A stretch of DNA of 64,000 nucleotides from a virus (taxonomy: Duplodnaviria; Caudoviricetes), in the IMG/VR virus record IMGVR_UViG_3300037484_000235, positions 128,001 to 192,000 of that record, one strand, 5' to 3'. The number at the start of each line of letters is the position of its first letter. Positions within the stretch are counted from its first letter, which is position 1. Position numbers and translations under genes: made by a program. Below the pieces are notes generated by a model. The model made no database searches. It saw only the letters and a program-made list of their open reading frames with translations, and had not been told where the DNA came from. This document shows positions 2,962-47,177 of this stretch, in pieces.

Positions 2962-2964
2962 CCC

Positions 2965-3567: not shown

Positions 3568-3583
3568 GGCGTAACAACTCACC

Positions 3584-5683: not shown

Positions 5684-5691
5684 GGTACATC

Positions 5692-5964
5692 GTGTCAGAC
5701 ATGAAGACCCGAATCGAAGTTGCGATCAAGAAGCGCGATGAATTGAATGCTCAGAAAGAGCGCATGCTTGGCCGACTAGAAGAGGCCGAGAAGAATCTCG
5801 AAGCTCTTCGTACTGAGTGTCGCGCAAAGAATGTGGATCCAGACAGCCTGGATGACACTGTTTCCAAACTAGAGAAGGGTCTAGCAGATTCCCTCACCGC
5901 ATTGGAATCCCAAATTGTAGTGGCAGAGAATGCCATCAAACCGTACACACAACCGCAAGAGTGA
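5692..5964 (+). CDS. Small coiled-coil protein
   Basis: Heptad-like Leu/Glu/Lys pattern over 90 aa; its stop overlaps the next start (GTGA). Confidence 0.7.
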   Translation: MSDMKTRIEVAIKKRDELNAQKERMLGRLEEAEKNLEALRTECRAKNVDPDSLDDTVSKLEKGLADSLTALESQIVVAENAIKPYTQPQE

Positions 5965-9864: not shown

Positions 9865-10379
9865 GCAACGATGTATGGGAAGCGGGCCAAGACGTACGTG
9901 ACATTATGAAGTACCATGTCGCCAACAATCACCCCAGTCTGGCGTCGGTGGACAAGGACATTGCGATCCTTTTCCGGAGCAAGGCAGCAAAGAGGGGCGG
10001 ACAGGTAATCCTTGGCACGAGTCGTAAGGCACCCCCGATCCTCGATGTGCTCGGGAAGGGTGACTACAAGTTCATCCTGGAGATTGGATCCGATGAATGG
10101 GCTCTTCTCTCGGAAGCTCAGAAGTCGGCACTCATCGATCATCTGCTCTGCGCATGCAAGGTTGAAGAGGACCCGAAGAGCGGGGAGCTGAAGTTCAGCA
10201 TCGCCCCCCCTGACGTCCAGTTCTACTGGGACGAGCTGTCCCGTCATGGTGACTGGCGTCCACGCCCTCAGCAGGAAGCGGGCGCTAGTATGGATCTCGA
10301 AGAGATGATCGGAAGCAAGGGCAAGAGCAAGCCCACCGATGCAGCCTCTGACATGGTTTCCGACGACCTAGACGCTTGA
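9861..10379 (+). CDS. Phage metallopeptidase-like protein with a degenerate metal site
   Basis: HPSLASVDKDIAILF...DYKFILEI..EW..LSEAQKSALIDHLLCAC...IAPPDV pattern; DHELxH appears as DHLLCA. Confidence 0.55.
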   Translation: MSNDVWEAGQDVRDIMKYHVANNHPSLASVDKDIAILFRSKAAKRGGQVILGTSRKAPPILDVLGKGDYKFILEIGSDEWALLSEAQKSALIDHLLCACKVEEDPKSGELKFSIAPPDVQFYWDELSRHGDWRPRPQQEAGASMDLEEMIGSKGKSKPTDAASDMVSDDLDA

Positions 10380-10423
10380 GTCTGGTCCAACTTTGCGTGG
10401 GACCTTCACGCGGATAGGAAATT

Positions 10424-31844: not shown

Positions 31845-33139
31845 CCCGACGCGTGCGCATGACATGGTCCGATAAGAAGGCTTCGGCCGCTCCGGCAACC
31901 CCTCAGGGAGAGTCTGATCATCCTGCTACGCAGCCTGATCCAGAGGCCGACGACTACATGAATGGTAGTCCCTCTTCGTGGGCAGAAGACCCAACGAAGG
32001 GTCCCTACGGCCAGTCGGCAGCTCCATCTATGCCAACTGAGGCAGGTGGACACCCAGCATCGAAGGCTGCTTCGCGTGACGTCAGGGCGGCCATGGAGCA
32101 CAAGGCTAGCAAGTGCATTCGTGTCGCTCAGTCGATGCTTGGCCGTAAGGCAAGCGTAGACATGATCGAAGATCAGGCTCTTGACCTCATGAACCTCACG
32201 GATCGTCAGATTCAAGCGATGCTCACACGTATCGCTGTGGACGAAGATGAGACCGAGGAAGAGGATGAGGACGTAGCGGAGCCTGTCGCTGCCAAGAAGG
32301 CAGACGACGAGTCCGAGGACGAAGAGGAAGATGAGGTGGAAACAGCAGCCAAGAAGGCCGCTCACTTCACTCGCCTTGCTGCCTTCTGGACGGATGCAGC
32401 CAAGAAGTCCGCCAAGAAGTCTGAGGACGAGGATGATGAGGATGAGGATGAGAAGATCCTCACCGCCATGCTCAAGGAAGAGTCCAAGAAGGCTGCTCGC
32501 AAGTCCGCCAAGAAGTCTGAGGACGAGGATGAGACCAAGGACGAAGAGGCTCCCAAGAAGGAAGCTAAGAAGTCTGAGGACGAGACCGAGACCGAAGACG
32601 AAGAGGCCCCCAAGAAGGAAGCCAAGAAGTCTGAGGACGAGACCGAGACCGAAGAGTCTGAGGACAAGGCGGACAAGACAGCCTGCGGCGAAGACGAAGC
32701 GCTTCTAGCCAGCATGGTTGCGGACATGGACTCGCCAATGGCCGACGACATGGATCCAATGGACGACATGGACCCAATGGACCCCATGATGGATGATCCA
32801 ATGGCTCTCATGGACTCCGATGACATGGGTATGAGCGACGACGACATGGGCCTTCTTTACGGAAGCCGCTTTGCCAAGAAGTCTGAGGGCGACGAGCCCG
32901 ATGGCGACGAAGCAGAGGAGCCAAAGAAGGAAGAGCCGAAGAAGGATGAGGCCAAGACGGCTGCTTCCAGGACCGCTGCGGCCAAGCGCACCGCTGCACT
33001 CAAGCCACAGCCCCGCCTGGCATCAACAGGCGTTCGCACCCTCGGTACGGTCACCAAGACCGCATCTTCGACAGAGATCACTGACCTCTCAAAGCTTTGG
33101 GAGTCCGCTCCTGATGTATCGAAGGTATTTGGGAACTGA
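31841..33139 (+). CDS. Capsid scaffolding protein (acidic, low complexity)
   Basis: E/D/K-rich repeats, MDPMDD repeats, dense KxA sites, LSKLWE C-terminus; located before the decoration and capsid genes. Confidence 0.75.
   Translation: MTRRVRMTWSDKKASAAPATPQGESDHPATQPDPEADDYMNGSPSSWAEDPTKGPYGQSAAPSMPTEAGGHPASKAASRDVRAAMEHKASKCIRVAQSMLGRKASVDMIEDQALDLMNLTDRQIQAMLTRIAVDEDETEEEDEDVAEPVAAKKADDESEDEEEDEVETAAKKAAHFTRLAAFWTDAAKKSAKKSEDEDDEDEDEKILTAMLKEESKKAARKSAKKSEDEDETKDEEAPKKEAKKSEDETETEDEEAPKKEAKKSEDETETEESEDKADKTACGEDEALLASMVADMDSPMADDMDPMDDMDPMDPMMDDPMALMDSDDMGMSDDDMGLLYGSRFAKKSEGDEPDGDEAEEPKKEEPKKDEAKTAASRTAAAKRTAALKPQPRLASTGVRTLGTVTKTASSTEITDLSKLWESAPDVSKVFGN
32390..32665 (+). repeat. Tandem (A)KKSEDE(DET) coding repeats in the scaffold
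   Basis: Repeated CAAGAAGTCTGAGGACGAG and GAGGCYCCCAAGAAGGAAGC units. Confidence 0.85.
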
Positions 33140-33175
33140 TTTCCCGCAACAAAATAGCCTAAAAGGCTGATCGTG

Positions 33176-33215
33176 AGGGGCTGTGCGAAAAAATCGCACG
33201 GCCCCTTTCGTTTTT
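33176..33215 (+). terminator. Rho-independent terminator after the scaffold gene
   Basis: 13-bp stem AGGGGCTGTGCGA/TCGCACGGCCCCT with an A5 loop, then TTCGTTTTT. Confidence 0.75.
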
Positions 33216-33342
33216 CCGCTAATAGCAATCACTTATACTGACAGGGCAATGATTGCCAGGTCCCACTCACAAGGTGTGGGTGGAGTTCTAGGTCACGATC
33301 CAACACCACTCCCCGAACAGGGAGCAAGACAGGAGCAAGGCT

Positions 33343-34023
33343 ATGCCATTGCTTGGACAGGCGAGCGGTGGGTGGACGGAAAGCTCTTCAGCTCTGAGGA
33401 TTCTCCACGTCGGTATTCGCAATACCGTCGGAGTCCTCTCGGATGACGCGTTTCGTCAGGTAAATCCACCCATCACGAGCACCGCAGGAACAGTCAGCAC
33501 ATCGCCCGGAGCCCTCACTGAGGTCTTCGGAGTCCTCTCGGGTTCGGTCGCGTTCACGCGTCCAGACGCGGGAACCAACCACATCGGCGGTCCCGTGAAC
33601 GTCGCTGTGTCCGGTGTGACCGCAGCACAGGCGCTCAACACGCGCCCACTTGGTTGCTTCATCAACAACGCCGCAGGAAACCCCTACGAGAACCTCCCAG
33701 CGAGCGCCTCGAACAAGGGTCCCTACGTCGCCGCGATGGGCACGTACGGAAACCGTCTCTACGAGACGCAGCTGCTTCAGGCAGCGGCCCCTCTCGGCCA
33801 GGGCGACGCGATCCCCTACCTCACCGGACAAGAGCTGATCTCGTCGATGAACGGGTATCTCATGCCACGCGGGTACGACAACGCAGGTGCGTTCGTCTCC
33901 CTCGACATCGCGACGATCGCGATTGAGCCCGAGAACGGCACGGCGGTTTCGCACCTCCTTGGCGTCCTCAAGATGGTCCCTGACTCCGTAATGACCGAAC
34001 TCGTCTACGACGCTCGCGTCTGA
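33343..34023 (+). CDS. Head decoration/cement protein
   Basis: Directly upstream of the major capsid gene, strongly biased codons; paralogous to 46598-47170. Confidence 0.65.
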   Translation: MPLLGQASGGWTESSSALRILHVGIRNTVGVLSDDAFRQVNPPITSTAGTVSTSPGALTEVFGVLSGSVAFTRPDAGTNHIGGPVNVAVSGVTAAQALNTRPLGCFINNAAGNPYENLPASASNKGPYVAAMGTYGNRLYETQLLQAAAPLGQGDAIPYLTGQELISSMNGYLMPRGYDNAGAFVSLDIATIAIEPENGTAVSHLLGVLKMVPDSVMTELVYDARV

Positions 34024-34034
34024 GGAAACCAGCC

Positions 34035-34913
34035 ATGACCACCACAGTCAACAACGCCGTCAAGCAGAAGATCATCAGCGACTACCTCAAGACAGCTTCG
34101 GGCCGTAACAAGCTCGCAGCGTCGATGACGCAGCCGCTCCGCACTCGCCGCGACTACATGAGCGTCGGTCGCAAGACCTTCCTCGTGGAGCAGCTCCCCG
34201 ATGGTGCGCTTCCGATCTACGACAAGGACCCGGACGTCACCGCGTTCGTGGTCGGCGAGGAAGGCGAGAACATCCTCGCCATCACCAAGCCACGCCGTGT
34301 GATCTTCCCGCTGTTCGAGATCGCATCGAACCCGGAAATCCCACTCACGCAGATCAAGGAGCGTCGCTTCGATCTGATCGAACGCGCCCAGGATCTTGCG
34401 CGTGCGCAGATTCAGGCAGCAGAAGACGAGCGTGTCTTCGCAGTGCTTGACGCAATCGCAGTCAACGGATTCGACTCGCTTCCCGGCGGGACGAACGCTG
34501 ACATCCCGGTCATCGCACCGATCACCGGCGCGGTACTCGCAGACGCCTTCTCGCTCATCGAGCGCCACGACCTTCGGGTTGCTCGCGTTTACATGAACGC
34601 GCGGGACTACGCGGATATCCGCAAGTTCGGTCGGGACATCCTGGACATCGAGTCCCAGGCCACCCTGCTCAAGACCGGACTTCAGGCCACCCTCTGGGGC
34701 GCCCAGGTCATCACGAGCCGTCTCGTCCCCGTCGGCACCGTGTACGTGTGCTGCGAGCCCGAGATGTTTGGACGCATTCCCGTACGTACGGAACTCACGG
34801 TCCTGTCTGCCGACGACCCGAAGGCCCGCACGATTGGATTTTCGGTCTTCGAAAATTTGGGCATCGGCGCATACAACCCACGTGGGTTGGTCCGACTCAC
34901 GATCACTCGCTGA
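34035..34913 (+). CDS. Major capsid protein (probably HK97 fold)
   Basis: 292 aa after protease, scaffold and decoration; strongest codon bias in the window; followed by a terminator; IQAAEDERVF and LWGAQVITS patterns. Confidence 0.85.
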   Translation: MTTTVNNAVKQKIISDYLKTASGRNKLAASMTQPLRTRRDYMSVGRKTFLVEQLPDGALPIYDKDPDVTAFVVGEEGENILAITKPRRVIFPLFEIASNPEIPLTQIKERRFDLIERAQDLARAQIQAAEDERVFAVLDAIAVNGFDSLPGGTNADIPVIAPITGAVLADAFSLIERHDLRVARVYMNARDYADIRKFGRDILDIESQATLLKTGLQATLWGAQVITSRLVPVGTVYVCCEPEMFGRIPVRTELTVLSADDPKARTIGFSVFENLGIGAYNPRGLVRLTITR

Positions 34914-34941
34914 TCGTAAACCCCTGTAAAATAGGGTGACT

Positions 34942-34982
34942 GAGAGGCTCGGTTCCGAGAGGGACCGGGCCTCTCGTCTTTA
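34942..34982 (+). terminator. Terminator after the major capsid gene
   Basis: GAGAGGCTCGGTTCC-GAGA-GGGACCGGGCCTCTC followed by GTCTTT. Confidence 0.75.
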
Positions 34983-35031
34983 ACTCGCTGGGATCGGCCC
35001 AGTCCAGAAATACTTTCCGATCCTTATAGCT

Positions 35032-37626
35032 TTGGCCTCGTCCTGTGTTATGGTACCGATAATCACCGACGGGGCATACTACTTGGAAACCTCTCCGAAG
35101 AACTCCCCTAACAAGGGGTGGGCAAAACAGAATGGGCTTGATAGTAATCTTCTCAGGACTCTCTATGAGGAGATGACAGACAAAGAGATTGCGATTCGCT
35201 ATGCAGTGAGTGACGCCTTGATTTCCTACTACCGTAGGAAATGGGGCATCCAAACAAAGACGACCCGACAGAGGGTTGATAAGTCTCGGGTAGGTCAACC
35301 GACTCTGGATGACCTGACACCTGTCACCCTAGCGGACCTTTATGCGCAGATGGGTGATCGACAGGTTGCCAAGCTCTACGGGGTCCAAAAGCCTGCCATC
35401 ACAAGACTCAGACAGAAGTGGGGTATCTCAGCGCTGTCTAAGGGGGATCGCTCCGCAAATCAGTCAACTGGATTCACTGAGGTCCAGAAAGAGGCATGCG
35501 TTGGTACCCTTCTTGGGGATGGGCATCTCCTTGAGCGTGGGGTTCTGAAAGTCACCCACTCACAGGCTCAACTTCCCTACTTGATGAGGCTTCATGCTTT
35601 TCTAGCCCCCCATGTTCTCCCGATCTTCTACGAGGAGAAAGACATGGTGGAGAGCGGGCAGGTCGCCTACGCTTTCGGGTTTCGGACAGTGCAACACCCG
35701 TGGCTTGCAACCCTACGTGGTCTTTTTTACCCAGAGGGTCGAAAGGTGTTTCCGGAGGCTGTCCTATCGGCTCTTTCCCCACGATCCCTAGCTTACTGGT
35801 ATTGGGACGACGGGCATCTTGACTCCGGATTGCCCTCATTTGCGCTTGGTAACATTACAGAGTCTGAGGCTAATAGGGTGGCTCAACTCGTTGGTGAACG
35901 ATTCTCTTTGGACACCTACGTGAAGCCGCAATCCACGGAGACATGCAAGCTCCTTGGCATTAGAGCCCGTACCGCTGACGTGTTATTCTACCTGATCCGA
36001 GAGTTTGCGACGGTCGATCTCCTTTACAAAATGCCACAGAAGCATTGGCCACCTGGGATGGTCCCTAAGGTGCTTCCTTTGACCAAGGAAGCTCACGCCC
36101 TACCCGCCCCCTTAGTAGAGAGGTGTAGCGGATGGGGGAGCCTCAGTGAGGACCAGCGTGCAACCTTGTTGACTGATCTGGAGCAACACTGGCATACGAT
36201 TGGATTTCCTCACCCAGAGCCAAGACCGGAAGAGATTGGTGTGATTCACGCACTCAATCACACCCAGGTCATCCAGGATGGTGTAGTCAAGAACAGACAG
36301 GTTGGGCAGGCAACGTGTCATGCTTTTGCACCACATATCTGGAAAGCACGGTCCTATGGCGCGTCGTCAAGCCCGGATGACATCTTCCAGGATCCAACGC
36401 TTCTACAACAGGCATTCAAGTTGTGCCTCAATGGAGGGGGGATACCTAACGGCGCACGACTCAGAGGGGTTCTCAGGCTCCTTAGGCGATCTGGCGTCTA
36501 CAACTTTCGCCCATCAGCAGCTAAGGCGCTCACTGACCGTTACTGTCGTGTTGGGGGGACTGTGTGGGATCCGTGCGCTGGTTACGGGGGCCGCCTTCTG
36601 GGTGTAGCGCTCTCATCCGCCCTTCCCCATTACATCGCGTGTGAGCCCCAGAGCGAGACCTACACCCGACTTCACCATCTCCGGGATTGGGTTGACTCCT
36701 ATGTTCCTGGGGTTGCTTCCAGGGTGTCACTTCACAATGTACCTGCTGAGGAATTCGACGTTCCAACAGGAGTTGATATGGTGCTTACCTCCCCTCCTTA
36801 TTGGAAGCGGGAAACATACGGGAATGAGCCAACTCAATCCGGAATTCGTTACCCTACTTATGCAGCATGGTTGGAAGGATTTTGGAGGGTGGTGCTCACA
36901 AAGTCTGTACAGGCCCTACGCCCTGGGGGGTGGTTGGTACTCAACGTAGACAACTTCAAGATCGGGGGACAAGAGTACGGTCTCGTGGGAGACACAACCT
37001 TGCTCGTAAGGGGGTTTGGTTTCGGGGAACCAGATGTGTTGCGGTACGCGATGCCAGCCCCTGGAGACTCAGATAACGCTGAGTATGTTCTATGTTGGCC
37101 AAAGGCAGGTGTTTCATCCCAGGCGGTTCCAGTTGAGCCGATCAATGTGTCCTCGTGTTCTGGGTGTGGCAAACCGACACCGTTCTCACAGCTTTTAGGC
37201 GGGGAATGTAGTCGGTGCCGAACATTGAAGGGCGTAACAGTCGTGTGTGAGGGATGCGGGAAGCCTTTTGTGTCTCTCCGGTCTGGGACACGATTTCATA
37301 ACGAAGCCTGTTATGCTAGATTCAAACGACGGAAGTATCGGGAGGCAAATCCAGCAAAGACTTCTCGCACGTTCACCTGTGTGACTTGCGAATCCACATG
37401 GGAGACTGATCTGCATGGGAATTTCCATACTTGTCCTACGTGCCGTGAAGCCGCTGAGGTAGCAGGTCGAACGAAGATTTGCGTCTATCGGCACTGTGGC
37501 AAGTCTTTCGTGGATACATCTCCGAAGAACGGGATGAAGTTCTGTGCTCCTGAGTGTGGTAGACGGGAAAAGATGTTCAGATGTGGGAAGGCTATGGACG
37601 AGTCTTACTTCCGAGTCCGGGCGTGA
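35032..37626 (+). CDS. Fusion: 2 HTH, LAGLIDADG endonuclease, amino-DNA methyltransferase and multiple Zn ribbons
   Basis: GTLLGDGHL...YWYWDDG (LAGLIDADG_2-like); FRPSAAK..VWDPCAGYGGR (motif I) and TSPPYW (motif IV); 7 CxxC-type pairs at the C-terminus. Confidence 0.85.
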   Translation: MASSCVMVPIITDGAYYLETSPKNSPNKGWAKQNGLDSNLLRTLYEEMTDKEIAIRYAVSDALISYYRRKWGIQTKTTRQRVDKSRVGQPTLDDLTPVTLADLYAQMGDRQVAKLYGVQKPAITRLRQKWGISALSKGDRSANQSTGFTEVQKEACVGTLLGDGHLLERGVLKVTHSQAQLPYLMRLHAFLAPHVLPIFYEEKDMVESGQVAYAFGFRTVQHPWLATLRGLFYPEGRKVFPEAVLSALSPRSLAYWYWDDGHLDSGLPSFALGNITESEANRVAQLVGERFSLDTYVKPQSTETCKLLGIRARTADVLFYLIREFATVDLLYKMPQKHWPPGMVPKVLPLTKEAHALPAPLVERCSGWGSLSEDQRATLLTDLEQHWHTIGFPHPEPRPEEIGVIHALNHTQVIQDGVVKNRQVGQATCHAFAPHIWKARSYGASSSPDDIFQDPTLLQQAFKLCLNGGGIPNGARLRGVLRLLRRSGVYNFRPSAAKALTDRYCRVGGTVWDPCAGYGGRLLGVALSSALPHYIACEPQSETYTRLHHLRDWVDSYVPGVASRVSLHNVPAEEFDVPTGVDMVLTSPPYWKRETYGNEPTQSGIRYPTYAAWLEGFWRVVLTKSVQALRPGGWLVLNVDNFKIGGQEYGLVGDTTLLVRGFGFGEPDVLRYAMPAPGDSDNAEYVLCWPKAGVSSQAVPVEPINVSSCSGCGKPTPFSQLLGGECSRCRTLKGVTVVCEGCGKPFVSLRSGTRFHNEACYARFKRRKYREANPAKTSRTFTCVTCESTWETDLHGNFHTCPTCREAAEVAGRTKICVYRHCGKSFVDTSPKNGMKFCAPECGRREKMFRCGKAMDESYFRVRA

Positions 37627-38034
37627 ATGTCAGTTGAAGTGCGTAAGGGTGCTATGGCCACCAAACCAGAAACTCCAAATCAGTTTGATGCATGGGCGGC
37701 TCCCCGTTCCAAGTTCACTCCCTCCGTGGAGGAGGCAAAAAAGAACAGTGGGATTGAACAGGTCTCTAAGGGGTATGCCGACCTGATAGCCGCAGGAATC
37801 CCGATTGCCATGAGGATCTGTGAGGAGAGGGGGAGAGTGACCTCTGTTGAAGTGGAAGCGGAGATGTTGTCAGACTCTCGTTATGCATCGAGGATGGCTG
37901 AAATCCCGGTGGGGGAAACTACGCCCGAGAGACGTTGGCTGGGGCATATCTTCCAGAGAGGTGGTTGGAAGCGTTTTGGCTACGAACCAACTGGATCTCA
38001 TGGCCGCCCTGTGTCCATCTGGAAACGTGCCTGA
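37627..38034 (+). CDS. Hypothetical protein
   Basis: 135-aa ORF; start may be ATG 37654. Confidence 0.6.
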   Translation: MSVEVRKGAMATKPETPNQFDAWAAPRSKFTPSVEEAKKNSGIEQVSKGYADLIAAGIPIAMRICEERGRVTSVEVEAEMLSDSRYASRMAEIPVGETTPERRWLGHIFQRGGWKRFGYEPTGSHGRPVSIWKRA

Positions 38035-38069
38035 CTGGGTCGGTGGCGCCCCTATCATTCTCCTAACGT

Positions 38070-38255
38070 ATGCAAGATGAGGATGGGAAGCCGCCAGACC
38101 CACGATGGATTCGTGCAGTAGACATCGTCTCTTGTGTGATTGTCTGCGCCTTTGCCCTCGCCGGTCGTTACAAGATCGCAGATAGCATTGACGACTTCAT
38201 GCACCCAGTGCTCGTCAGGGCCCGGGCCCGTGCTCGTGCAAGGAGGACTACGTGA
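38070..38255 (+). CDS. Small membrane protein
   Basis: One hydrophobic segment AVDIVSCVIVCAFALAG. Confidence 0.5.
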   Translation: MQDEDGKPPDPRWIRAVDIVSCVIVCAFALAGRYKIADSIDDFMHPVLVRARARARARRTT

Positions 38256-38431
38256 CCGTGATTACGCGTTCCCAAAAAGCTGCGGATGCTGCGGTGGTTG
38301 TGGTCGATGCTGCACGCCGCCTGATACACAACAGGCATAAGGAGGGGCTCCCACGCGCCACAGAGATTGCTTTGTATGATGCACTAGAGCAGGCGGTGTT
38401 GTTCTATGAGGAGTGCAGGTCGGTAACGTAG
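38252..38431 (+). CDS. Small hypothetical protein (59 aa, below the track cut-off)
   Basis: GTG overlapping the upstream TGA, AGGAGG SD; MTVITRSQKAADAA... Confidence 0.55.
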   Translation: MTVITRSQKAADAAVVVVDAARRLIHNRHKEGLPRATEIALYDALEQAVLFYEECRSVT

Positions 38432-38453
38432 AGCAACCCGTACAGGAGCCCTC

Positions 38454-39023
38454 ATGGATTTCATCAAGAGCTGGAAGTTCGCTGTGATCGTGTTCGTTGT
38501 CATCGCCTCATTTGCCATCGTGGGTGTGATTTACGGGGTGGCTACACACACCGAACCCGGCCTCATGGAAGATGCCCCTCAATGGCGTCCTACTGATTTT
38601 CCACTGGCCACCTGTCAGCGGGCCTATGTGTCTGGCGCCACAACAGGTATTGATGTCCAAAAGGCGATCCAGACAATCAACTCCCGTTTGGGATTTCAGG
38701 CTTTCGTTAGCTCGGACTCTTCGTGCCGGGTGGACATCACTCTGGGTGTGCCTGCGGAGATGGGGTGGATGGACCCGGGTGGTGACGCCCGATTCACCGA
38801 CAGCATGAACACCATGCGGTGCGAGGTTCGGACCTCAAACGTACAGGGTGAGCTTCTGGGCCTGGTTCTACAGCACGAGCTTGGCCATTGCTTGGGTCTG
38901 GCTCATGATGACTACGAACAGAGCATCATGCGTCGGGTGCAGAACCACACCGTCCGTGGGTTGCCCCCGTGGATTTCAGACTCGGACAAGAGCCTTCTCG
39001 TGGGTCTTTACGGTCCAAGGTGA
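38454..39023 (+). CDS. Membrane-anchored matrixin/metzincin metalloprotease
   Basis: N-terminal TM helix; HELGHCLGLAH (HExxHxxGxxH) plus Met-turn SIM. Confidence 0.85.
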   Translation: MDFIKSWKFAVIVFVVIASFAIVGVIYGVATHTEPGLMEDAPQWRPTDFPLATCQRAYVSGATTGIDVQKAIQTINSRLGFQAFVSSDSSCRVDITLGVPAEMGWMDPGGDARFTDSMNTMRCEVRTSNVQGELLGLVLQHELGHCLGLAHDDYEQSIMRRVQNHTVRGLPPWISDSDKSLLVGLYGPR

Positions 39024-39178
39024 TGGGGTCGACTCAGAAACCCGCAATCGACACCAGCATGGCCATACCCACACATGAGGGGATCCGTATCTCAGTGCCT
39101 ATGGGGACCTTAATGCTGAGGTTTGACGTGCGTGAGTTGGTCCTACGCCTTACGATTCAACGGCTGAATCGGATGTGA
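39023..39178 (+). CDS. Possible small protein (51 aa)
   Basis: ATG overlaps the upstream TGA; MGSTQKPAIDTS... Confidence 0.35.
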   Translation: MGSTQKPAIDTSMAIPTHEGIRISVPMGTLMLRFDVRELVLRLTIQRLNRM

Positions 39179-39180
39179 TC

Positions 39181-39516
39181 TCAGTCGTCGTCGTCGTGTC
39201 GTGACTGGACTCGGACCCTACGAGCGCGGATCCTGGCTGACTTTCGGGTGATGGCGCGGGCGACGGGGTCTGGGTACTCGGGGTTCAGTCGCACCTCTCG
39301 ATCAACGGTGGCGGTGATGTTGCGGTGAGCGCGGTCGCCATTGTCGATGAGGTCCATGGATTCACACCATTTCCAGGCGGCCCACTCGTTCGCTTGGAGT
39401 GGGGTGGTGTACTCATCGATCAATTCGGGTTCGTGGGACATGACGAAGGCTTCCCCGATAGCTTCGAGGATTTCTTCAAAGCGCTCGTCAGTGACAGTGG
39501 ATTCCGAGATTGTCAT
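39181..39516 (-). CDS. Hypothetical protein (counter-oriented)
   Basis: 111 aa, GAGGAG SD, ATGA coupling to the upstream minus ORF. Confidence 0.7.
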   Translation of the reverse strand: MTISESTVTDERFEEILEAIGEAFVMSHEPELIDEYTTPLQANEWAAWKWCESMDLIDNGDRAHRNITATVDREVRLNPEYPDPVARAITRKSARIRARRVRVQSRHDDDD

Positions 39517-39908
39517 GGCGTCTCCTCGTAGTTGTAGCGTAGTGCCCAGGCTTCATCTTCGTTCGATCCAACATCAGCATGGTGCTTGTCGAACGCATAG
39601 CGGTTCTCGTAGGCAGCAAGGATTTGTTCCTCCTTACGCTGCTGCTCTTCGCCCCAGTGCGTCCCGTAGAACTCGGATCGGAAGTCATCCCACGCCTTGT
39701 CTTCCTCGCGTCCACGAGCTGAGCGCAGGCGGTCGCCCTTCTCGCGCCGCCCCTTAGCGACGACTTTGAACGTATTCAGGGGGACGCGGGCGAAGTGCTC
39801 GCAGTCGCACACCCAGCAGTAGTCCACGGCCTTCCCCAGCTGCGTACAGCCGTTCGGGTTGTGGACGGTAGGAACGTTGGCGCCCCATCGAGTCGTTGCG
39901 TTAGTCAT
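39513..39908 (-). CDS. Hypothetical protein with CxxCxC (counter-oriented)
   Basis: MTNATTRW...YCWVCDCEH; ATG 39908 preferred because the longer track ORF overlaps the tmRNA. Confidence 0.65.
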   Translation of the reverse strand: MTNATTRWGANVPTVHNPNGCTQLGKAVDYCWVCDCEHFARVPLNTFKVVAKGRREKGDRLRSARGREEDKAWDDFRSEFYGTHWGEEQQRKEEQILAAYENRYAFDKHHADVGSNEDEAWALRYNYEETP

Positions 39909-40033
39909 GCCTGAGAGACGCCCGGCCATTTGGGTTCCTGACAGAGACGGGGAACTTTTTGATCGGTCCGGTGATTTAGTGGTTGCACTCCGTTCTGGGT
40001 GGGCGTAAGAGCCTGGGGATAGGAAGTACCAAC

Positions 40034-40418
40034 GGGCTCGAAAGGTTTCGACAGGGAGGTGAAGAGAGAGGGTGCGCGCCTTGGTCGGTCGAAGGGCCAA
40101 GTAAAAAATCGACCTACGACAGCTGCCAACGATAACAGCTACGCTCTCACGGCAATCGCCGCGTGAGCCGTTCGCGGAGAGAGTTTCTCAGGTAGATCTC
40201 TTCGCGAGCGTAAAAGGAATCTGAGAGAACCTCGGGCCAGACCATCGAGGCTAAACATGGCGGTGACGGATAGACTCTGGGAAACCAAGAGCCTACCCGG
40301 TGGAAGGGCGCCAGGGACCGCAAGCCTACCGTAAGTGGCTTGGAATCCTGGAGACGCGCGTGGTGCCTGATCTTTAGTAATCGCTCTGGACGTGGTTTCA
40401 ATACCACCGAGTCCACCA
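40034..40418 (+). ncRNA. ssrA: tmRNA (one-piece), tag peptide ANDNSYALTAIAA
   Basis: 5' GGGCTCG pairs with 3' CGAGTCC-ACCA with a G3.U alanine-identity wobble; GGTTTCGAC near the 5' end; T-arm GTGG-TTTCAATA-CCAC; tag ORF at 40125-40166. Confidence 0.92.
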
Positions 40419-40426
40419 GTGGGGTA

Positions 40427-40462
40427 GGGGTAGGGGGTCAGCGTACACTGACCCCCTACCCC
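40427..40462 (+). other. Perfect 15-bp GC-rich hairpin 3' of the tmRNA
   Basis: GGGGTAGGGGGTCAG-CGTACA-CTGACCCCCTACCCC; no U-tract. Confidence 0.8.
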
Positions 40463-40490
40463 CAAGGAACCCTGCCCAAAGTCCACCACA

Positions 40491-40949
40491 TTGAACACCA
40501 CACCCTACTCGGAGAAGCTCCTCGTTCAGGCACTGGGCGTGGTCCTTTGCAGTGGGATTGTATTCAAACAGAACGCTCGTCCCAGGTTCCTCAAGAATCC
40601 GGCCACCGGGACGAATCTTGAGCTTGACGTGTACCTTCCAAAGCTGCGTCTGGCTTTTGAGGTGCAGGGTCCGCAGCACCGCAAGGATGCCCAGCAGGTG
40701 GCTCGGGATGCCCTCAAGGCGGGTCTGGCGGAGGCCCGTGGGGTCAAGGTCATCCCCTTGCGCCTCGACGAGCTACGGGCTGATGGTGTGTGGCGGTGCC
40801 TTCATGCGAGGGCCCGGGAGATCGGTGTCTCCCCGTGGAAGGTTGTGCAGCCGCTCGGGTTCATCCGTGAAGGGATGCAGCTTCAACACGAGGCTGCGAC
40901 CAAGTACACCGCTCACCTTCTTGAGAAGTACGGACCGTTAGAAGTCTGA
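40491..40949 (+). CDS. Free-standing PD-(D/E)XK (Vsr/DUF559-like) endonuclease
   Basis: RPRFLKNP.TG.NLELDVYLPKLRLAFEVQGPQH...RD..K; start uncertain (TTG). Confidence 0.75.
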   Translation: MNTTPYSEKLLVQALGVVLCSGIVFKQNARPRFLKNPATGTNLELDVYLPKLRLAFEVQGPQHRKDAQQVARDALKAGLAEARGVKVIPLRLDELRADGVWRCLHARAREIGVSPWKVVQPLGFIREGMQLQHEAATKYTAHLLEKYGPLEV

Positions 40950-40964
40950 TAGTCCGCCAATGGC

Positions 40965-41582
40965 ATGGCGTCCCTCAGGTCCAAGGTGATTCGACTAGCA
41001 CACTCCCGGCCGGAGCTTCGCCCGGCTCTTCTTCCTCTGTTGAAGGCGGCTTCCGAAGAGGAGAACGAGAGTGAGGCGCAGGCCAGGGCTATTCTAGAGA
41101 AGAACCTGGAGCCCCTCAAGAGAGGCTTCTGGAAGCCCCCACACAATCTGGCCCTCAACTTTGCACTGATGGGCGCGAACCTGTGGACGTTCACCATCCT
41201 CCCGCTCTTCTGGAAGAAGCAGGGTTATCGGGCTGACCTCAACGGGATTGTGATCCAACCCCTCTGGCGGTCCGTGCAGAGTGGCACCACCCTCGGGTAT
41301 AGGAATACGTCGGGATTTGCTATCCTGACTCCTGATGTTGCCCAGAGCATCGTGAGTCTGATTGGACGGGCGGAGTCAATCCAGGACACAGTCCGGGAAG
41401 AGCTTCGGCTCATCGAGACTCACTTCGGGATTGAGATTCCAAGTCAGATCAAGACGTCCCTTGCATCTACCGACATGCTGAAGGTTGCAAAACGCCGTTG
41501 GCGTGTGGACACCCTCAAGCTCAAGAAGCGCCTCATCCCATTTGATGGCAGCAAGCCTAGAGACCTGGGCTCGTTCGATTGA
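40965..41582 (+). CDS. Putative head-cargo protein with the shared leader
   Basis: MASLRSKVIRLAHSRPELRPALLPLLKAA-S. Confidence 0.7.
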   Translation: MASLRSKVIRLAHSRPELRPALLPLLKAASEEENESEAQARAILEKNLEPLKRGFWKPPHNLALNFALMGANLWTFTILPLFWKKQGYRADLNGIVIQPLWRSVQSGTTLGYRNTSGFAILTPDVAQSIVSLIGRAESIQDTVREELRLIETHFGIEIPSQIKTSLASTDMLKVAKRRWRVDTLKLKKRLIPFDGSKPRDLGSFD

Positions 41583-41613
41583 ACCAACCTCGCGTCGCAT
41601 AGGACCCTCAAAA

Positions 41614-41937
41614 ATGGCTACTCTCTCAAGCTCTGCTTCTCTTCGACTTGCTGATGATACGAGCAGGACAATGCTCTTGCCCATTTCCACTGACGCTGGT
41701 GCTGCTGCACTCGTTGTGTCGGTGCGTTTCGGTCCATTCGTTCCTGGAGATCCCATCATCGTCGTATCTGACGCGGCGTTTCACATGGTAGCTGGCACCG
41801 TGACGATTGATGCGACCGTCGCAAGTCCAAAATTCCTCGCAGGGCTCTATGCTTTTACGATGCCTGATGATTGCACCCACGTGGCGATGATCCAGTCTGT
41901 AGCTGGTGCTGCGGTTGGCCAAGCATACCGTGGCTGA
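41614..41937 (+). CDS. Small beta-rich putative virion protein
   Basis: ATG 41614, 107 aa. Confidence 0.5.
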   Translation: MATLSSSASLRLADDTSRTMLLPISTDAGAAALVVSVRFGPFVPGDPIIVVSDAAFHMVAGTVTIDATVASPKFLAGLYAFTMPDDCTHVAMIQSVAGAAVGQAYRG

Positions 41938-41949
41938 GCGAAGAGAACC

Positions 41950-43395
41950 ATGCCCTCTTTCATCGACACTGCCCTCCGCCGTTACGCGTCTGGTTTTTCC
42001 GCGCGTAGTTCCGGGAATGGGCGTCGGCCGGGGCGTGGCTCGCGCAGGGGCGGGGGCTGGGGAGTCAATCCTTCGCTGCTCGACGCCCTATTCGGCGACG
42101 GTAGTGGTCCGCGCGTGTTGCACGTCACTGGCGACAGCACGTCCAACGATCCGATCGACTGGGCGTACAAGCTCGGCGTGCTGCTGGCCGCTCACCGGCC
42201 TGACTACGCCCTTCACTACGCCTTGTGGAACGCCGCCTCGCAGCGAATGGGGTCAACGGCGCAACTACAGAACCCGTCTGGTGCCGCGCGAAGCAGCGCT
42301 CTAGGCAGCACGGCGGCAGCGCGATTCAATGCGACGATCAACACCACCGCACTCGTCGATCTCGATGTGCGAGTGAAGCTCGCGGCCACGGACTGGACCC
42401 CGGCCGCGATTGCTGCGGTGTGTGGTGCTGACGCAGCCGACCCAAATCGTTTGTTCTGGTTTCAGATCCTGACGAACGGCAAGCTACGACTCTCGTGGTT
42501 TCCTCTGGGCACCAACGCCTCTGCGATCAATGTCGACTCAACCATAGCGACTGGCGTCGCCGATGGCACTGCCAAAGTCATCCGCGCGACGCTCGACGTT
42601 GACAACGGCGCCGCCGGATACACCGTCACGTTCTACACGAGCGCGACCAACAACTCGTGGGTGCAGCTCGGCGATCCGGTCGTCGGCGGCGCCCCAACGA
42701 ATCTGCACGGAGTCGCAGCGAGTAATCTCACCGTGGGTGGACGAGGCACCACCAACGGCGTGCCCGGCGTGTACTACTGGGCCGAGGTGCGGGACTCCAT
42801 TGACAGCGTGGGGGTGACGGCGCTGTGGGACGCGAGCGACTATGCTGGCAGCGGGACCATTACGGGCGTCGCGGGCGAGACATGGACGCCAACGGGTAGT
42901 CCCGTCACGACAGGTGCCTTTGCACTGCGCGTGATCAACGCGTCGCAAGCTGGCCAGACGTCAGTTGGGTGGGCCACGTCGCCCGCTTTTGAGGGCGGAC
43001 ACCCCGTCGCACCGGCTGTCCATCTCGTGAATCTTGGACACAACGATGGCGCGGCGGTAGACATCGTGAACTATACAGCACTCATCGACGATCTCGTGAC
43101 GCGCTGGCCGTCCGCAACTCGTGTACTCGTGCGGCAAAATGATCAGCCTCCGACGGCCGCAAATCCCACGGAGCACGCGATTCGGCAAGAGTTGATTCGC
43201 TCCCTCGCGGTGTCACGGCGATACGAGCTGCTCGACGCTGATGCCTCGCTGCGATCATACACGGCGGGCGACTGGACGACCGATCTCATGGAGGATTGGG
43301 CGGGCGGCAATGTGCACATGAATGCTGCGGGCGGGACTTGGATCGCAGCCACCTTTGGCGCGCGTTTTGTGGCACCTCGGGTGTTTGTACCATGA
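41950..43395 (+). CDS. SGNH/GDSL hydrolase interrupted by a LamG/ConA-like domain
   Basis: VTGDSTS (block I), VNLGHND (block III), DW.GGNVHMNAAG (block V); the insert has LDVRVK..ATDW, FWFQI..NGKLRL and LTVGG. Confidence 0.7.
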   Translation: MPSFIDTALRRYASGFSARSSGNGRRPGRGSRRGGGWGVNPSLLDALFGDGSGPRVLHVTGDSTSNDPIDWAYKLGVLLAAHRPDYALHYALWNAASQRMGSTAQLQNPSGAARSSALGSTAAARFNATINTTALVDLDVRVKLAATDWTPAAIAAVCGADAADPNRLFWFQILTNGKLRLSWFPLGTNASAINVDSTIATGVADGTAKVIRATLDVDNGAAGYTVTFYTSATNNSWVQLGDPVVGGAPTNLHGVAASNLTVGGRGTTNGVPGVYYWAEVRDSIDSVGVTALWDASDYAGSGTITGVAGETWTPTGSPVTTGAFALRVINASQAGQTSVGWATSPAFEGGHPVAPAVHLVNLGHNDGAAVDIVNYTALIDDLVTRWPSATRVLVRQNDQPPTAANPTEHAIRQELIRSLAVSRRYELLDADASLRSYTAGDWTTDLMEDWAGGNVHMNAAGGTWIAATFGARFVAPRVFVP

Positions 43396-43443
43396 CCCCA
43401 CACACGACGATCAACGCCTGACAATTTCAAGGAAACTAGGACC

Positions 43444-44526
43444 ATGACCACCACCAAGATTGCAATGCCTCGCGAGCGCCACTTCTCCTACAACGACCCC
43501 AAGGCTCCAGGGTCTCCGTGGGGTTCAACTCAGTCGCTTTACGATCATCCCACACTGCGGGGCGTCCGTATCGTGAGCACAGCAAGTCATGGTGGTATGG
43601 GTATCGCGGGTGGTATTGCCCGCAAGGTGCTCTCTCCGGCTGCGTACAAGATCGGGGAGAAGTACGGTGGGTACGTTTGGTTTGAAGAGGACGTTGGGAT
43701 CAGCATCCCCTACTACGAGCACCCTGAGTGGTATCCGCTCCTGGTGGGGAAGCCACTTACGGATGCTGTGAAGATGGACCTGGAGCGTAGTATCCGCCAA
43801 TCGTACCCTCGGTACTTCAAGATGCGGGAAGAGGGCTACAAGCTTCCTGAAGCACTTCGGGTCGGTGACACCCTCCGTGTCATTCTGCCAATCCATCTCT
43901 CTCGTGGACCTGGGCTTGCGGTTGGGGATTTGCTTTTGGTCACGAAGCTGACTGCCACGTATTTCTACGCATCGTCGCCCACAAGGACGAGCTTGCGGAT
44001 CAAGCTCCCTGTTGGGTACTACCTGGGTGCAACTGGGTGGGGCACCACGGAAGACAAGATCTACGTAGAAAAGGTGCCAAGCCCAGCTCGGGTCGCTGCC
44101 CTTAAGCTATCTGGAAGGAAGGAGAAGCCGCCAGAGACGCATGCTGTGCGCATGGAAAAGATCCTCAAGGATTTCGACAAATCAGTAGCCAAGCGCTGGC
44201 CTGGTGTAAAGCATGAGAAGGCGTCCTTTGGAAAGATTGAGGATGACACACCGATCATGCCTTGGGTAGTGGCGCAGTCTGTTATCGAGGAGGCCCAAAA
44301 GGAAACGGGGGCCTCGTTGAATGTCCGTAATCTAGTGCGGAGTCTCTCAACTCGGGCACAGACCACCTACGAGCACAATGAGGATTTTCGTAAGAAGGTC
44401 CGTGGTCGTGGGGACTCTGGTCGTGATACTCTCTATGCTTTTATGCGACACTGGCTAGCAGCCTACCTTAAGAAAGAGCAACCCGACGTCTTTCGAAAGC
44501 TTCCAGGTGACTGGTTTTCAAGGTAG
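43444..44526 (+). CDS. Multidomain protein, N-terminal DUF7007-like domain
   Basis: SPWGSTQ...IVSTASHGGM...WFEED; TKIA and RVAA sites. Confidence 0.55.
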   Translation: MTTTKIAMPRERHFSYNDPKAPGSPWGSTQSLYDHPTLRGVRIVSTASHGGMGIAGGIARKVLSPAAYKIGEKYGGYVWFEEDVGISIPYYEHPEWYPLLVGKPLTDAVKMDLERSIRQSYPRYFKMREEGYKLPEALRVGDTLRVILPIHLSRGPGLAVGDLLLVTKLTATYFYASSPTRTSLRIKLPVGYYLGATGWGTTEDKIYVEKVPSPARVAALKLSGRKEKPPETHAVRMEKILKDFDKSVAKRWPGVKHEKASFGKIEDDTPIMPWVVAQSVIEEAQKETGASLNVRNLVRSLSTRAQTTYEHNEDFRKKVRGRGDSGRDTLYAFMRHWLAAYLKKEQPDVFRKLPGDWFSR

Positions 44527-44580
44527 GTAAGGCAACCTTGGTAGAGTATCCCCGGAGACACAACCTCCGGAGGCTCTGCA

Positions 44581-45750
44581 ATGGCTGCTGATACCGCTGA
44601 GATCAAATTCGTTCCTGGGACGTTCCAGTCATTTCGAACTACCACCAAGATTCACCTTGGGAAGATCATCAAAGACCTCAAGTTAGGTGATGTCGTCCAA
44701 TTTGATGGACAGACACTCAAGGTCGAAGGGGTGGATTACGCCTACCCAGAGTTCCGAGCTGCTTTCAAAGCTGGTGTCGGCTGGGCTGTTCCAGAAGTGG
44801 ACAACATCTCAAGCTACACGGCCAAATCCACGGATGCAAAGGTGCGTCCCGCTCTGGATTCCAAGAAGAATCAAGGTAAACACGTTCCCATCACGGTCTC
44901 CGATGATGAGAAGGATGTTGGCCCGGCTCGTCGTGTGGTCAAGGCGGATGATCCAGACGAGGCAAAGGTGGTCGGCTCCTTCAGTAAGAAGATCCAGAAC
45001 ATGGATGACGTAGAGAAGCCTGTTGGTCCGTCGACCAAGAGAGCAATGGAAGTGAAGTCTGACTCAGTCGGCAACGAGGATGCTGTCACCGTTGGGAAGA
45101 TTCGTACTCCCGCAGTGATGAAGACAGTGGTCTCTGATGGGGCGCAAGCAGCTCGCGAGGCTGCAAGGCTTGATGAGGTCCCACCGCCCAGAGCTATTCT
45201 CAACTCCCCAAAGGGTGAGATTCACGCGGCCGAGTCCGAGGATGTGGGGTCGATCATTGACTCCCTCAATCCGGAAGACCACGCACGTATGGTGCGGGAT
45301 CAGCGCAAGGCACAGCCCCCCAAGACGGAAGCGCAAGACCACGGGTCTGTGGATTGGGCAAGTCAGGTGGCAGAGGCCAGACAGATTCTGGCAGAAGATG
45401 CACGCAGGTGGGAGGCAAAGGTGGCAGAGGCCAGACAGATTCTGGCAGAAGATGCACGCAGGCCGGCAGTAACAACAGCCTCTCCTGTTTCTGTAAGGAA
45501 GGAAGCCCCCAAGCACCCACGAACCCGCCCGGTTACAGTCGAGGAAGTCATTATGCGGGGAACTGACATCGACCTTGGTGACGGGGTCATGTGGGACAAG
45601 AATCTTCATTGGAAGACGCGGGCCAAGATTGCGGCCGAGCAGTACAGGGATAACCCGAAGATCTTGGCGGCTATTCGCCAAGCGGAGTCCCCAGCGGTGA
45701 ACGCCCTGATCTCCGAACGCATCACGGCCATCACTGGCAAAGCGGCCTAA
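44581..45750 (+). CDS. Hypothetical protein with an internal 18-aa duplication
   Basis: 389-aa ORF; VAEARQILAEDARR occurs twice. Confidence 0.65.
   Translation: MAADTAEIKFVPGTFQSFRTTTKIHLGKIIKDLKLGDVVQFDGQTLKVEGVDYAYPEFRAAFKAGVGWAVPEVDNISSYTAKSTDAKVRPALDSKKNQGKHVPITVSDDEKDVGPARRVVKADDPDEAKVVGSFSKKIQNMDDVEKPVGPSTKRAMEVKSDSVGNEDAVTVGKIRTPAVMKTVVSDGAQAAREAARLDEVPPPRAILNSPKGEIHAAESEDVGSIIDSLNPEDHARMVRDQRKAQPPKTEAQDHGSVDWASQVAEARQILAEDARRWEAKVAEARQILAEDARRPAVTTASPVSVRKEAPKHPRTRPVTVEEVIMRGTDIDLGDGVMWDKNLHWKTRAKIAAEQYRDNPKILAAIRQAESPAVNALISERITAITGKAA
45365..45462 (+). repeat. Perfect 44-bp direct repeat, 54-bp period
   Basis: AGGTGGCAGAGGCCAGACAGATTCTGGCAGAAGATGCACGCAGG at 45365 and 45419. Confidence 0.95.
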
Positions 45751-45816
45751 TAGGGCTCGTTCGGTAACTCTCGGATAATGTTGGCAGGTGAGGAGCACCT
45801 TGCTTCTCCAGCCAAC

Positions 45817-46590
45817 ATGAAACGAACTAAGACAGCTTCGAGTCAGGTCGCATGGTCCCTTCTTGCGGAGGGTGTGACCCAGGCTCGTGTAGACATCCAT
45901 CGTTTGAGGCTCTTGATCGATAGAGCACAAGCCATGGTCGAGAAGTCCGAGGAACGAGAGCACATTTGGCAGGTGGCAGGTGACGTGATTCAGGGGATCC
46001 CTGATACGTTGTCCTCTGCGGAACGTGCTCTTGATCGAACCTCCTACGCCCTATCCGTTATGGGAGAGGATTTCCTACGTGGCAGATTATCATTTGATGA
46101 TCGTGCCAGAGTCGATGGCGCCGTGAAAACTTCCCCGTTCTCAGGAAATCGTGGGAAGGACTCAATGGCGTCCAGGGTAGCCCGTCGGTATCTTCTGGTT
46201 CAGGGTGTTGGTGGGAGGGGCTCAATGGAGTCCCGGGTGTCTCGCCGATACCTTTTGGCTCAGGGTGTTGCCCCAAGCGCAGAGGCCTACTTCTTCCACA
46301 ATCCGGAAATGAGGGAGGTCAGGCAACTCAGTGAGTCCAAAGCTATCTCTAATGACACCGGTGTGGCCGTCAATACGGTAAAGGGGTTGGAGTCTCCGGA
46401 TAGAACTGTATCCAAGGCACGTAGTGAGTCAAACAAGGCTCCGCCTACTCCGGATCAGATCAAGAGGATGCCAGGGGGTGCTGAGTTCTCCACTCTCAAT
46501 CGGTTCCTTGTGGAGACAGGACAGCCTGGGGTTCACGGTGTACCCGAAGGTCATTGGGAAGTCCCTAAACACCCTAAGTTGAAGCGGTGA
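45817..46590 (+). CDS. Putative head-cargo protein with a duplicated SRVxRRYL helix
   Basis: MKRTKTA-SS; MASRVARRYLLVQG and MESRVSRRYLLAQG. Confidence 0.6.
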   Translation: MKRTKTASSQVAWSLLAEGVTQARVDIHRLRLLIDRAQAMVEKSEEREHIWQVAGDVIQGIPDTLSSAERALDRTSYALSVMGEDFLRGRLSFDDRARVDGAVKTSPFSGNRGKDSMASRVARRYLLVQGVGGRGSMESRVSRRYLLAQGVAPSAEAYFFHNPEMREVRQLSESKAISNDTGVAVNTVKGLESPDRTVSKARSESNKAPPTPDQIKRMPGGAEFSTLNRFLVETGQPGVHGVPEGHWEVPKHPKLKR

Positions 46591-46597
46591 GGCCCTT

Positions 46598-47170
46598 ATG
46601 TCTACCGCAATGAATCTCACAAGCAATGAACTCGATGTCCTCAAGGCGGGAGGCAGGCTTGCAGCTACGGCTGGTCCTCTTCTTCGGGCAAGTGGTTGGC
46701 GTGCAGGTCAGTGGGTCATGTACGCCACAACCCAATCCCCTCCTGTGTCTGAGTTCACCGTTGAGAAATCCAACGGAATCTACGCGGCCGGATTCATCCT
46801 GTGCGAGAGTGAAAACTATTCTGACCCCAGGCGCTCCACGTACCGAAACTACACGTCCTATCAGAACGCTGGTTCCTTTGCTTCGGCTTCGTCCGGAGCT
46901 AGCGTCATCACTATTCTGACGGACGGCGGGCGATATCTCTTTCAGCTTTACGAGACAATCGCCCTGGACGCCTTTGGGGTTCGAACCGGTGGGCCCGCAA
47001 TTTACAGCGTGAATCAGCAGCTCAAGGTCAGTGAAAACGGGATTCTCTGCCAGGATCTGGATGCCTCTCTTATTTTGGCTACGGGCGGTACCAGTGTGAT
47101 TGAGGTGGGTGTGTGCAGCAAGGTGCCAACTACCGATGATCCGCGTCTTGGGCTGGACAATCAGTTCTGA
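46598..47170 (+). CDS. Paralogue of the head decoration protein
   Basis: QLYET...YSVNQQLKVSENGIL...VGVCSKVP aligns with RLYET...YLTGQELISSMNGYL...LGVLKMVP. Confidence 0.6.
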   Translation: MSTAMNLTSNELDVLKAGGRLAATAGPLLRASGWRAGQWVMYATTQSPPVSEFTVEKSNGIYAAGFILCESENYSDPRRSTYRNYTSYQNAGSFASASSGASVITILTDGGRYLFQLYETIALDAFGVRTGGPAIYSVNQQLKVSENGILCQDLDASLILATGGTSVIEVGVCSKVPTTDDPRLGLDNQF

Positions 47171-47177
47171 GTACACC

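Follow-up and report, generated by a model that had tools for sequence, protein, structure and literature searches.

What is a homing-type endonuclease doing in one polypeptide with a DNA methyltransferase (MTase), directly behind the capsid gene of a phage? The question is raised by a 64,000-nt stretch of Caudoviricetes DNA (the window, by which we mean that whole stretch), bases 128001–192000 of IMG/VR record IMGVR_UViG_3300037484_000235. The source record measures 252,521 bp and yet is 57% complete according to CheckV, which, on these estimates, makes the window part of a huge phage; its nearest GenBank relative is LR745208.1, a 485-kb uncultured phage. The gene in question (35050..37626, plus strand) joins two helix-turn-helix (HTH) repeats, a LAGLIDADG endonuclease domain, an MTase module, and a C-terminal array of zinc sites. 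We see about an even chance that this fusion is a selfish cassette of the homing type, in which the nuclease confers mobility and a self-sufficient MTase is the passenger. It is a widespread and apparently undescribed variety of free-standing homing endonuclease gene, set apart by its in-frame, conserved passenger of MTase and zinc fingers.

The fusion occupies a single open frame at 35032–37626 (+), with 864 codons counted from TTG 35032; residue numbers below follow this 864-aa numbering. The true start is most likely ATG 35050, because the homologues begin at the Met at residue 7 (24 of 24 aligned) and the database entry, P0002, is 858 aa long. This start gives a protein of 858 aa and leaves a gap of 136 bp to the capsid gene. 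An AlphaFold2 model of the fusion is confident throughout, including the domain junctions (mean predicted local distance difference test score [pLDDT] 90.2, predicted template modelling score 0.74). The two tandem HTH repeats (35137..35451, +; residues ~36–140), of ~35 aa each at roughly 38–76 and 97–135, are seen in the translation and the alignment and are helical in the model, and HTH_23 is recorded for several homologues. They are followed on the same strand by a monomeric LAGLIDADG domain with two motifs (35473..36051; PF03161), an amino-methyltransferase module composed of a helical N-terminal subdomain and a Rossmann core (36067..37149; residues 346–706), and a C-terminal zinc-site array of two CxxC...CxxC ribbons and two CGNR-like fingers (37150..37623). 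An initial annotation of this DNA had described one open reading frame (ORF) with two HTH repeats, a two-motif LAGLIDADG domain, and an MTase (DPCAGYGG...TSPPY), all of which the frame, Pfam, and the alignment bear out; it had also placed the gene directly after the capsid gene, and the upstream gene at 34035–34913 indeed encodes a major head protein (phrog_2522). PHROGs and PADLOC labels agree on "homing endonuclease" and "DNA methyltransferase," and no NCBIfam family matches the fusion protein.

The N-terminal half resembles I-SceI. Pfam LAGLIDADG_2 (PF03161) matches residues 154–311 at 78.9 bits (cut-off 25), or 82.6 bits when the genome was searched, and a profile built from 66 homologues matched I-SceI (E 2.6e-27) and I-WcaI (6.6e-25) when compared with structures. 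The domain is predicted to adopt the pseudo-dimeric alpha-beta-beta-alpha-beta-beta-alpha fold: a Foldseek search with the pLDDT-90 model returned I-SceI and I-WcaI with a target-normalised template modelling (TM) score of 0.76, and matches to 5a0m, 1r7m, and 6x1j had E values of about 1e-10 and target-normalised TM scores of 0.76–0.78. In the HMMER alignment, the motifs LLGDG (D163; codon 35518–35520, +) and WDDG (D260; codon 35809–35811, +) align with D44 and D145, the catalytic residues of I-SceI. Both aspartates are invariant in the 66 homologues and retained in all four fused clades, and the ratio of nonsynonymous to synonymous substitution rates (dN/dS) of the LAGLIDADG domain is 0.058 (window versus L002). 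These features make an active, site-specific DNA endonuclease the most likely identity of the nuclease half. No intein or Hint family was found in the fusion protein (Pfam, E ≤ 1) and no group I or other intron family across 33000–45000 (Rfam, E ≤ 0.1), so the gene has neither the splicing domain nor the flanking group I intron of an intein- or intron-encoded endonuclease.

In the MTase half, DPCAGYGGR (residues 513–521; motif I, 36568–36594, +) and TSPPY (586–590; motif IV, 36787–36801, +) are invariant in the aligned homologues. Motif I precedes motif IV by ~66 residues, which is the gamma-type order, permuted relative to PF01555. The pattern [LIVMF]-T-S-P-P-[FY] is the PROSITE signature of N4-MTases, and TSPPY suggests that the enzyme is probably an N4-cytosine or N6-adenine DNA MTase. 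The model of this domain (pLDDT 95) has a predicted class I Rossmann-fold MTase core, with matches to TrmN (Z 17.5, root-mean-square deviation 2.2, 177 residues aligned) and Trm11 (Z 17.0). That the substrate is likely to be DNA is indicated by annotations and by sequence relatives: the module matches PDB 2zie in a profile search (E 4e-10) and PADLOC MTase_II (5.7e-7), and relatives of the same module score above the family cut-offs for PF01555 (L106, 41.9 bits; L053, 46.3 bits) and PF02384 (L031, 26.4 versus 20.4). A stand-alone 330-aa "N-4 cytosine-specific DNA methylase" of a Vibrio phage matches residues 368–664 (2e-23, 28% identity), and the module also occurs without a nuclease in ORFs of 376–400 aa; being homologous to complete stand-alone phage enzymes, it therefore needs no extra recognition domain.

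The C-terminus carries eight Cys/His pairs, seven of them all-Cys and one His/Cys, with the cysteines invariant or nearly so in the alignment, and Pfam places zf-CGNR at residues 813–848. The pairs would form about four zinc sites; the roughly seven Cys-pair ribbons described initially thus hold as a number of all-Cys pairs, and as a number of ribbons they give way to about four. We rejected an HNH reading of this region, in which the match to phrog_1271 covers only zinc-ribbon positions and Pfam finds no HNH family. The DNA of the C-terminal CGNR-like finger (37472–37613) is 72.5% identical to that of the N-terminal zinc finger of the ZN-ZN-MT gene in L106 (8154–8295); the finger has been shuffled between the two ends of the MTase. 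When the window is compared with L002, its nearest relative (dS about 0.9), dN/dS comes to 0.11 for the HTH repeats, 0.049 for the MTase module, and 0.069 for the zinc fingers; every domain of the fusion is under purifying selection (dN/dS 0.05–0.11). A foreign origin by composition was likewise rejected, the GC content (0.536), the GC content at third codon positions (0.546), and the codon-usage likelihood of the gene all lying within the range of other genes.

Relatives of the fusion are numerous. A word-seeded search returned 80 proteins, ~70 of them full length (815–1230 aa, 41–89% identity), from JGI, ENA, NCBI, and Logan assemblies with contigs of up to 528 kb. When 1.84 billion cluster representatives were searched exhaustively with HMMER, 213 clusters (50% identity) matched at E ≤ 1e-30, dozens among the matches listed spanning the nuclease and MTase halves in one match, and IMG/VR holds at least 472 stretches encoding relatives. 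GenBank LR745208.1 shows the same uninterrupted architecture. An artefact, whether an assembly chimera or a frameshift merging two genes, has next to no probability given the recurrence of the architecture in LR745208.1 and in independent assemblies, the confidence of AlphaFold2 across the domain junctions, and the low dN/dS in every domain. The chimera that the initial annotation had raised is excluded in particular by the same architecture in more than 70 clusters from independent assemblies, and, as far as sequence can show, the comparisons exclude an artefact in favour of one real protein. Public contigs matching the region are 50–530-nt pieces, none spanning the capsid-fusion or the nuclease-MTase junction; they show no joints and are uninformative on chimerism or polymorphism; among public-read datasets no RNA set is listed, and the best DNA set has one quarter of the sampled words.

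Is the position behind the capsid gene special? We retrieved 80 IMG/VR loci with nothing but the capsid protein as query (capsid identity ≥90% throughout), a sample unbiased regarding the fusion, and scanned their downstream content with domain hidden Markov models. They represent 65 distinct loci, and after removal of 15 with too little downstream DNA, 50 could be classified. The capsid gene was followed by none of these domains in 21 of the 50, by one or more free-standing HTH-LAGLIDADG genes in 20 (up to three in tandem, in L105), by a LAGLIDADG-MTase fusion in six, and by a zinc-finger MTase without a nuclease in three (L088, L092, and L106). Wherever enough upstream DNA is present, a fused gene lies no more than about 400 bp from the capsid stop codon. 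The distance from that stop codon to the homologue of 44581–45750 ranges from +200 bp (L117) up to +9668 bp (the window), a variability that marks 34914..44580, which separates the capsid gene from the conserved block that follows (44581–49214), as a hypervariable island. The intergenic hairpins and the fusion gene together (34914..37626, +) form a replaceable cassette within it. The window and its relatives cease to be homologous in DNA at 34913–34917, the capsid stop codon; in L085 homology resumes at 37780 (homologue of 37627–38034), and the gap holds a 352-aa free-standing LAGLIDADG gene of another clade in place of the 2.6-kb fusion, a difference best described as a cassette-like replacement.

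The distribution of the fusion conflicts with the descent of its carriers. On a backbone tree of two adjacent genes (33343–34023 and the capsid gene; 86 rows), presence of the ZN-type fusion requires 16 changes for 20 rows, at least 12 of them forced by well-supported branches. This is near the shuffled mean of 17.8, and the presence of the fusion is therefore unclustered on the tree. Backbones that are closely related carry unlike contents: a fusion in L107 versus three free nucleases in L105, a clade C fusion in L069 versus a ZN-type fusion in L003, and a free nuclease in L122 versus none in L151. Approximately unbiased (AU) tests on a tree of 19 ZN-type fusions rejected two groupings that the backbone tree would require (p 3e-4 and 4e-11), the groups being backbone-defined but picked after quick domain trees were seen. 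Scattered presence and AU rejection argue for lateral, site-specific spread; the gene occurs sporadically, always in the same place, and its phylogeny disagrees with that of its carriers, although the events are old. The LAGLIDADG tree and the MTase tree give the same four fused clades, and the two halves therefore travel together.

Decay products are also found. The fused clade includes 390-aa nuclease-only truncations (L025, L027, and L028; L026 ends at the contig end), and L029 has an internal deletion in the MTase. Four loci (LR745208.1, which is L001, at 7803–11492; L012; L095; and L096) encode fusions of 1229–1230 aa with an extra in-frame N-terminal HTH-LAGLIDADG module. Because its catalytic positions read N and R, this module is a dead remnant of a second nuclease gene that was inserted between the capsid gene and the fusion.

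How would such a gene spread? As a homing cassette, the N-terminal half would cut the 3′ flank of the capsid gene in co-infecting relatives that lack the cassette, recombinational repair would then copy the cassette in right after the capsid stop codon, and the C-terminal amino-methyltransferase and zinc fingers would ride along as fused cargo. By modifying the DNA of the phage, perhaps as protection from host restriction, the MTase could benefit carriers, which would explain why the whole gene is under purifying selection rather than decaying. What is inferred here is that the nuclease cuts, where its target lies, that the MTase acts on DNA, and what the methylation does. Each half exists alone, both at the same site and, for the MTase, also in unrelated phages; therefore, neither half needs the other. 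The initial annotation had proposed a self-immunising homing element or a weapon resembling a restriction-modification (R-M) system. Homing beside the capsid gene survives from that proposal, given an I-SceI-like nuclease with intact catalytic residues, the hotspot, and the phylogenetic conflict with the flanks; the self-immunity and R-M parts gain no support from these comparisons, as free nucleases persist there without an MTase and the MTase is found alone there and in unrelated phages.

Several observations weigh against a homing cassette with an MTase passenger. Cargo alone does not explain the persistence of the fusion in four clades. Carriers, free-nuclease loci, and gene-free loci were compared over the final 63 nt of the capsid gene and the next 70 nt, and showed no class-specific difference that would reveal a target site. 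Apart from the window and L002 (89%), family members are at most ~75% identical and their synonymous sites are saturated; all transfers look old, present-day homing is therefore only a possibility, and old gains with many losses could mimic part of the scatter. The backbone tree has a narrow basis of two adjacent genes only, and the AU groups were picked with the quick domain trees already seen. On the enzymatic side, the match of the fusion itself to N6_N4_Mtase (PF01555; residues 581–645) is weak, at 16.1 bits below a cut-off of 26.7. The best structural matches of the MTase, TrmN and Trm11, are tRNA amino-MTases that also have an xPPY motif, and for that reason the fold alone cannot decide between DNA and RNA; a fold search for DNA MTases ranked only generic class I MTases and tRNA amino-MTases at the top, a result that excludes no family.

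The persistence of the fusion is well explained if the MTase is an antidote. In the genome of the carrier, the fused MTase would methylate the site that the nuclease recognises, making the element an epigenetically self-immunised gene drive, whose nuclease could target immutable capsid-flank sequence yet spare its own genome and would never be made without the antidote; such obligate toxin-antidote pairing predicts a stable fusion. The co-divergence of nuclease and MTase as a unit in four fused clades and the equally strong purifying selection on both halves fit this idea, as does the extreme constraint on the capsid gene (99% amino acid identity at 80% nucleotide identity, dN/dS 0.02), which limits immunity by target mutation. 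We nonetheless regard it as doubtful, since 20 of the 50 loci have a free-standing LAGLIDADG gene at the same site without any MTase, the fused clade has nuclease-only derivatives (L025, L027, and L028), and MTase modules that lack a nuclease are found both at this site and in unrelated phages. A cassette sitting in its own target usually requires no further immunity, and the flank comparison gave no site information. A related proposal has the same two activities turned outward, as a single-chain, R-M-like weapon whose nuclease would strike unmethylated host or competitor DNA in numerous places, with the phage's own DNA marked by the MTase. The recognition sites of I-SceI-type enzymes are long and rare, which fits homing rather than restriction across a genome; insertion strictly behind the capsid gene is a homing signature, and the nuclease has its own DNA-binding saddle and no recognition domain in common with the MTase. 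We accordingly hold a weapon to be very unlikely, even though nuclease and MTase share one chain as in Type IIG/IIC enzymes and, according to one report, an intron-encoded homing endonuclease of jumbo phage PhiPA3 interferes with a competing phage (PMC11620839).

The gene might instead be a domesticated, non-mobile phage enzyme in which the LAGLIDADG, HTH, and zinc modules target the MTase or act on host DNA, inherited vertically and often lost or replaced. There is precedent for such a fate in WhiA, a LAGLIDADG-derived DNA-binding protein that has lost the catalytic Asp. Purifying selection over deep divergence (dS saturated, dN/dS 0.05–0.15), codon usage and GC content ordinary for the genome, and the lack of recent transfer among sampled members would all be expected of it. 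Against these stand the catalytic aspartates, which are retained everywhere, unlike in WhiA; a presence that is unclustered on the flanking-gene tree, with congruence rejected by AU tests; and the ~42% of relatives that have no such gene at the site, so that it must be dispensable. The stand-alone homologues also indicate that the MTase module needs no extra targeting domain, and we consider domestication distinctly unlikely.

Placed among known systems, the homing cassette shares parts with several. I-SceI and I-WcaI have the same fold and family (PF03161), with both catalytic aspartates aligned, but are proteins of ~230 aa found in mitochondrial group I introns; in the window the domain belongs to a free-standing phage gene, with two HTH repeats ahead of it and ~520 aa of MTase and zinc fingers joined to it. 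Type IIG/IIC R-M enzymes likewise carry endonuclease and MTase in a single polypeptide, but have a shared recognition module, short sites, and a role in cellular defence, whereas the window gene sits in a phage structural-gene region at a homing-type site and each of its halves also exists alone as a complete protein. We know of no Type IIG/IIC enzyme with a LAGLIDADG nuclease. A search of the full-text literature found no description of a LAGLIDADG-MTase fusion, no match for a LAGLIDADG Type IIG/IIC enzyme, and no paper on accession LR745208. The methylase of Vibrio phage 2.058.O has a homologous module with the same motif order, I then IV, and an SPPY-type motif in common, but it has no nuclease, HTH, or zinc-finger domains, and its gene lies among nucleotide-metabolism genes rather than after a capsid gene.

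Free-standing homing endonuclease genes of phages lie by essential genes and at exchange boundaries (T4 seg/mob; ICP1 and others) and cluster near capsid genes (PMC10448857). The fusion is similarly sporadic, intergenic beside the very conserved, essential capsid gene, located precisely at a border between conserved and variable DNA, and equipped with DNA-binding repeats. The genes in that paper, in which the words methyltransferase and methylase do not occur, consist of nuclease and DNA-binding domains only, whereas the fusion has an enzymatic passenger and has been under long-term purifying selection. In the ShiLan element, an HNH endonuclease lies inside an actinophage DNA methylase gene (PMC11855218), so that there, too, homing nuclease and phage DNA methylase gene are physically linked; the HNH, however, is encoded in a different frame, by an insertion inside the methylase, whereas here a LAGLIDADG nuclease forms the in-frame N-terminal half, and the MTase family differs.

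A LAGLIDADG-MTase fusion that stays intact and selected over hundreds of huge-phage contigs and several deep clades, while hopping at one site, departs from the usual picture of homing endonucleases, in which a bare, selfish nuclease decays after fixation. With the MTase as cargo, the element would be a clear natural gene drive that carries a potentially useful enzyme from phage to phage; with the MTase as antidote, it would embody a new immunity principle, a solution to self-cleavage, and the first LAGLIDADG-based R-M-like unit. In either case, these would be compact enzymes that recognise long sites and have a DNA modifier built in, and the family marks the capsid 3′ flank as a hotspot where recombination shapes the genomes of huge phages.

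On its left the element is flanked by the conserved major capsid protein gene (34035..34913, +; phrog_2522 major head protein, E 4e-50). Amino acid identity among relatives is 80–99% with DNA identity of ~80%, and dN/dS is 0.02 (window versus L002). In the window and loci L082–L161 this 292-aa protein is extraordinarily constrained, with 90–99% protein identity over hundreds of contigs and only ~80% DNA identity, whereas the products of neighbouring genes are 35–65% identical. Two hairpins follow the capsid stop codon (34922..34978, +), the second with a 15-bp GC-rich stem followed by GUCUUU and terminator-like. The pair has a fold energy of −40.6 kcal/mol (z −5.4, none of 200 shuffles as good), although a simple terminator rule failed to list it, and other loci have hairpins of their own at the same position. 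A promoter scan found no promoter-like site upstream of the fusion gene. Elsewhere in the window, a second MTase unrelated to the fusion is encoded at 3584–5683 (+; 699 aa; PF01555 85.8 bits summed in frame; PADLOC MTase_II E 2.3e-32), and the phage thus has at least two MTases.

Other loci show further arrangements behind the capsid gene. L105 has three different free-standing HTH-LAGLIDADG genes in tandem at 8003–11123, with flanks near-identical to those of the fusion-carrying L107, and in L004 a ZN-type fusion (1954–4545) is directly followed by a paralogous zinc-finger MTase gene without a nuclease (4549–6708, 720 aa). In the window, the remainder of the island encodes a small Met-zincin-like peptidase (38454–39023; Peptidase_M10 E 3.5e-7), a GDSL-lipase/tail-fibre-like protein (41950–43395), a DUF7007 protein (43444–44526), and the products of several ORFs that match no family. 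It also holds a transfer-messenger RNA (tmRNA) gene at 40034–40418 (+; Rfam RF00023, 94.3 bits, E 3e-36), for which ARAGORN gives the tag peptide ANDNSYALTAIAA. Two minus-strand ORFs that overlap this gene (39513–40100 and 40139–40501) are probably spurious, and part of the tmRNA region (40033–40181) is 71–79% identical to DNA of L085 and L087.

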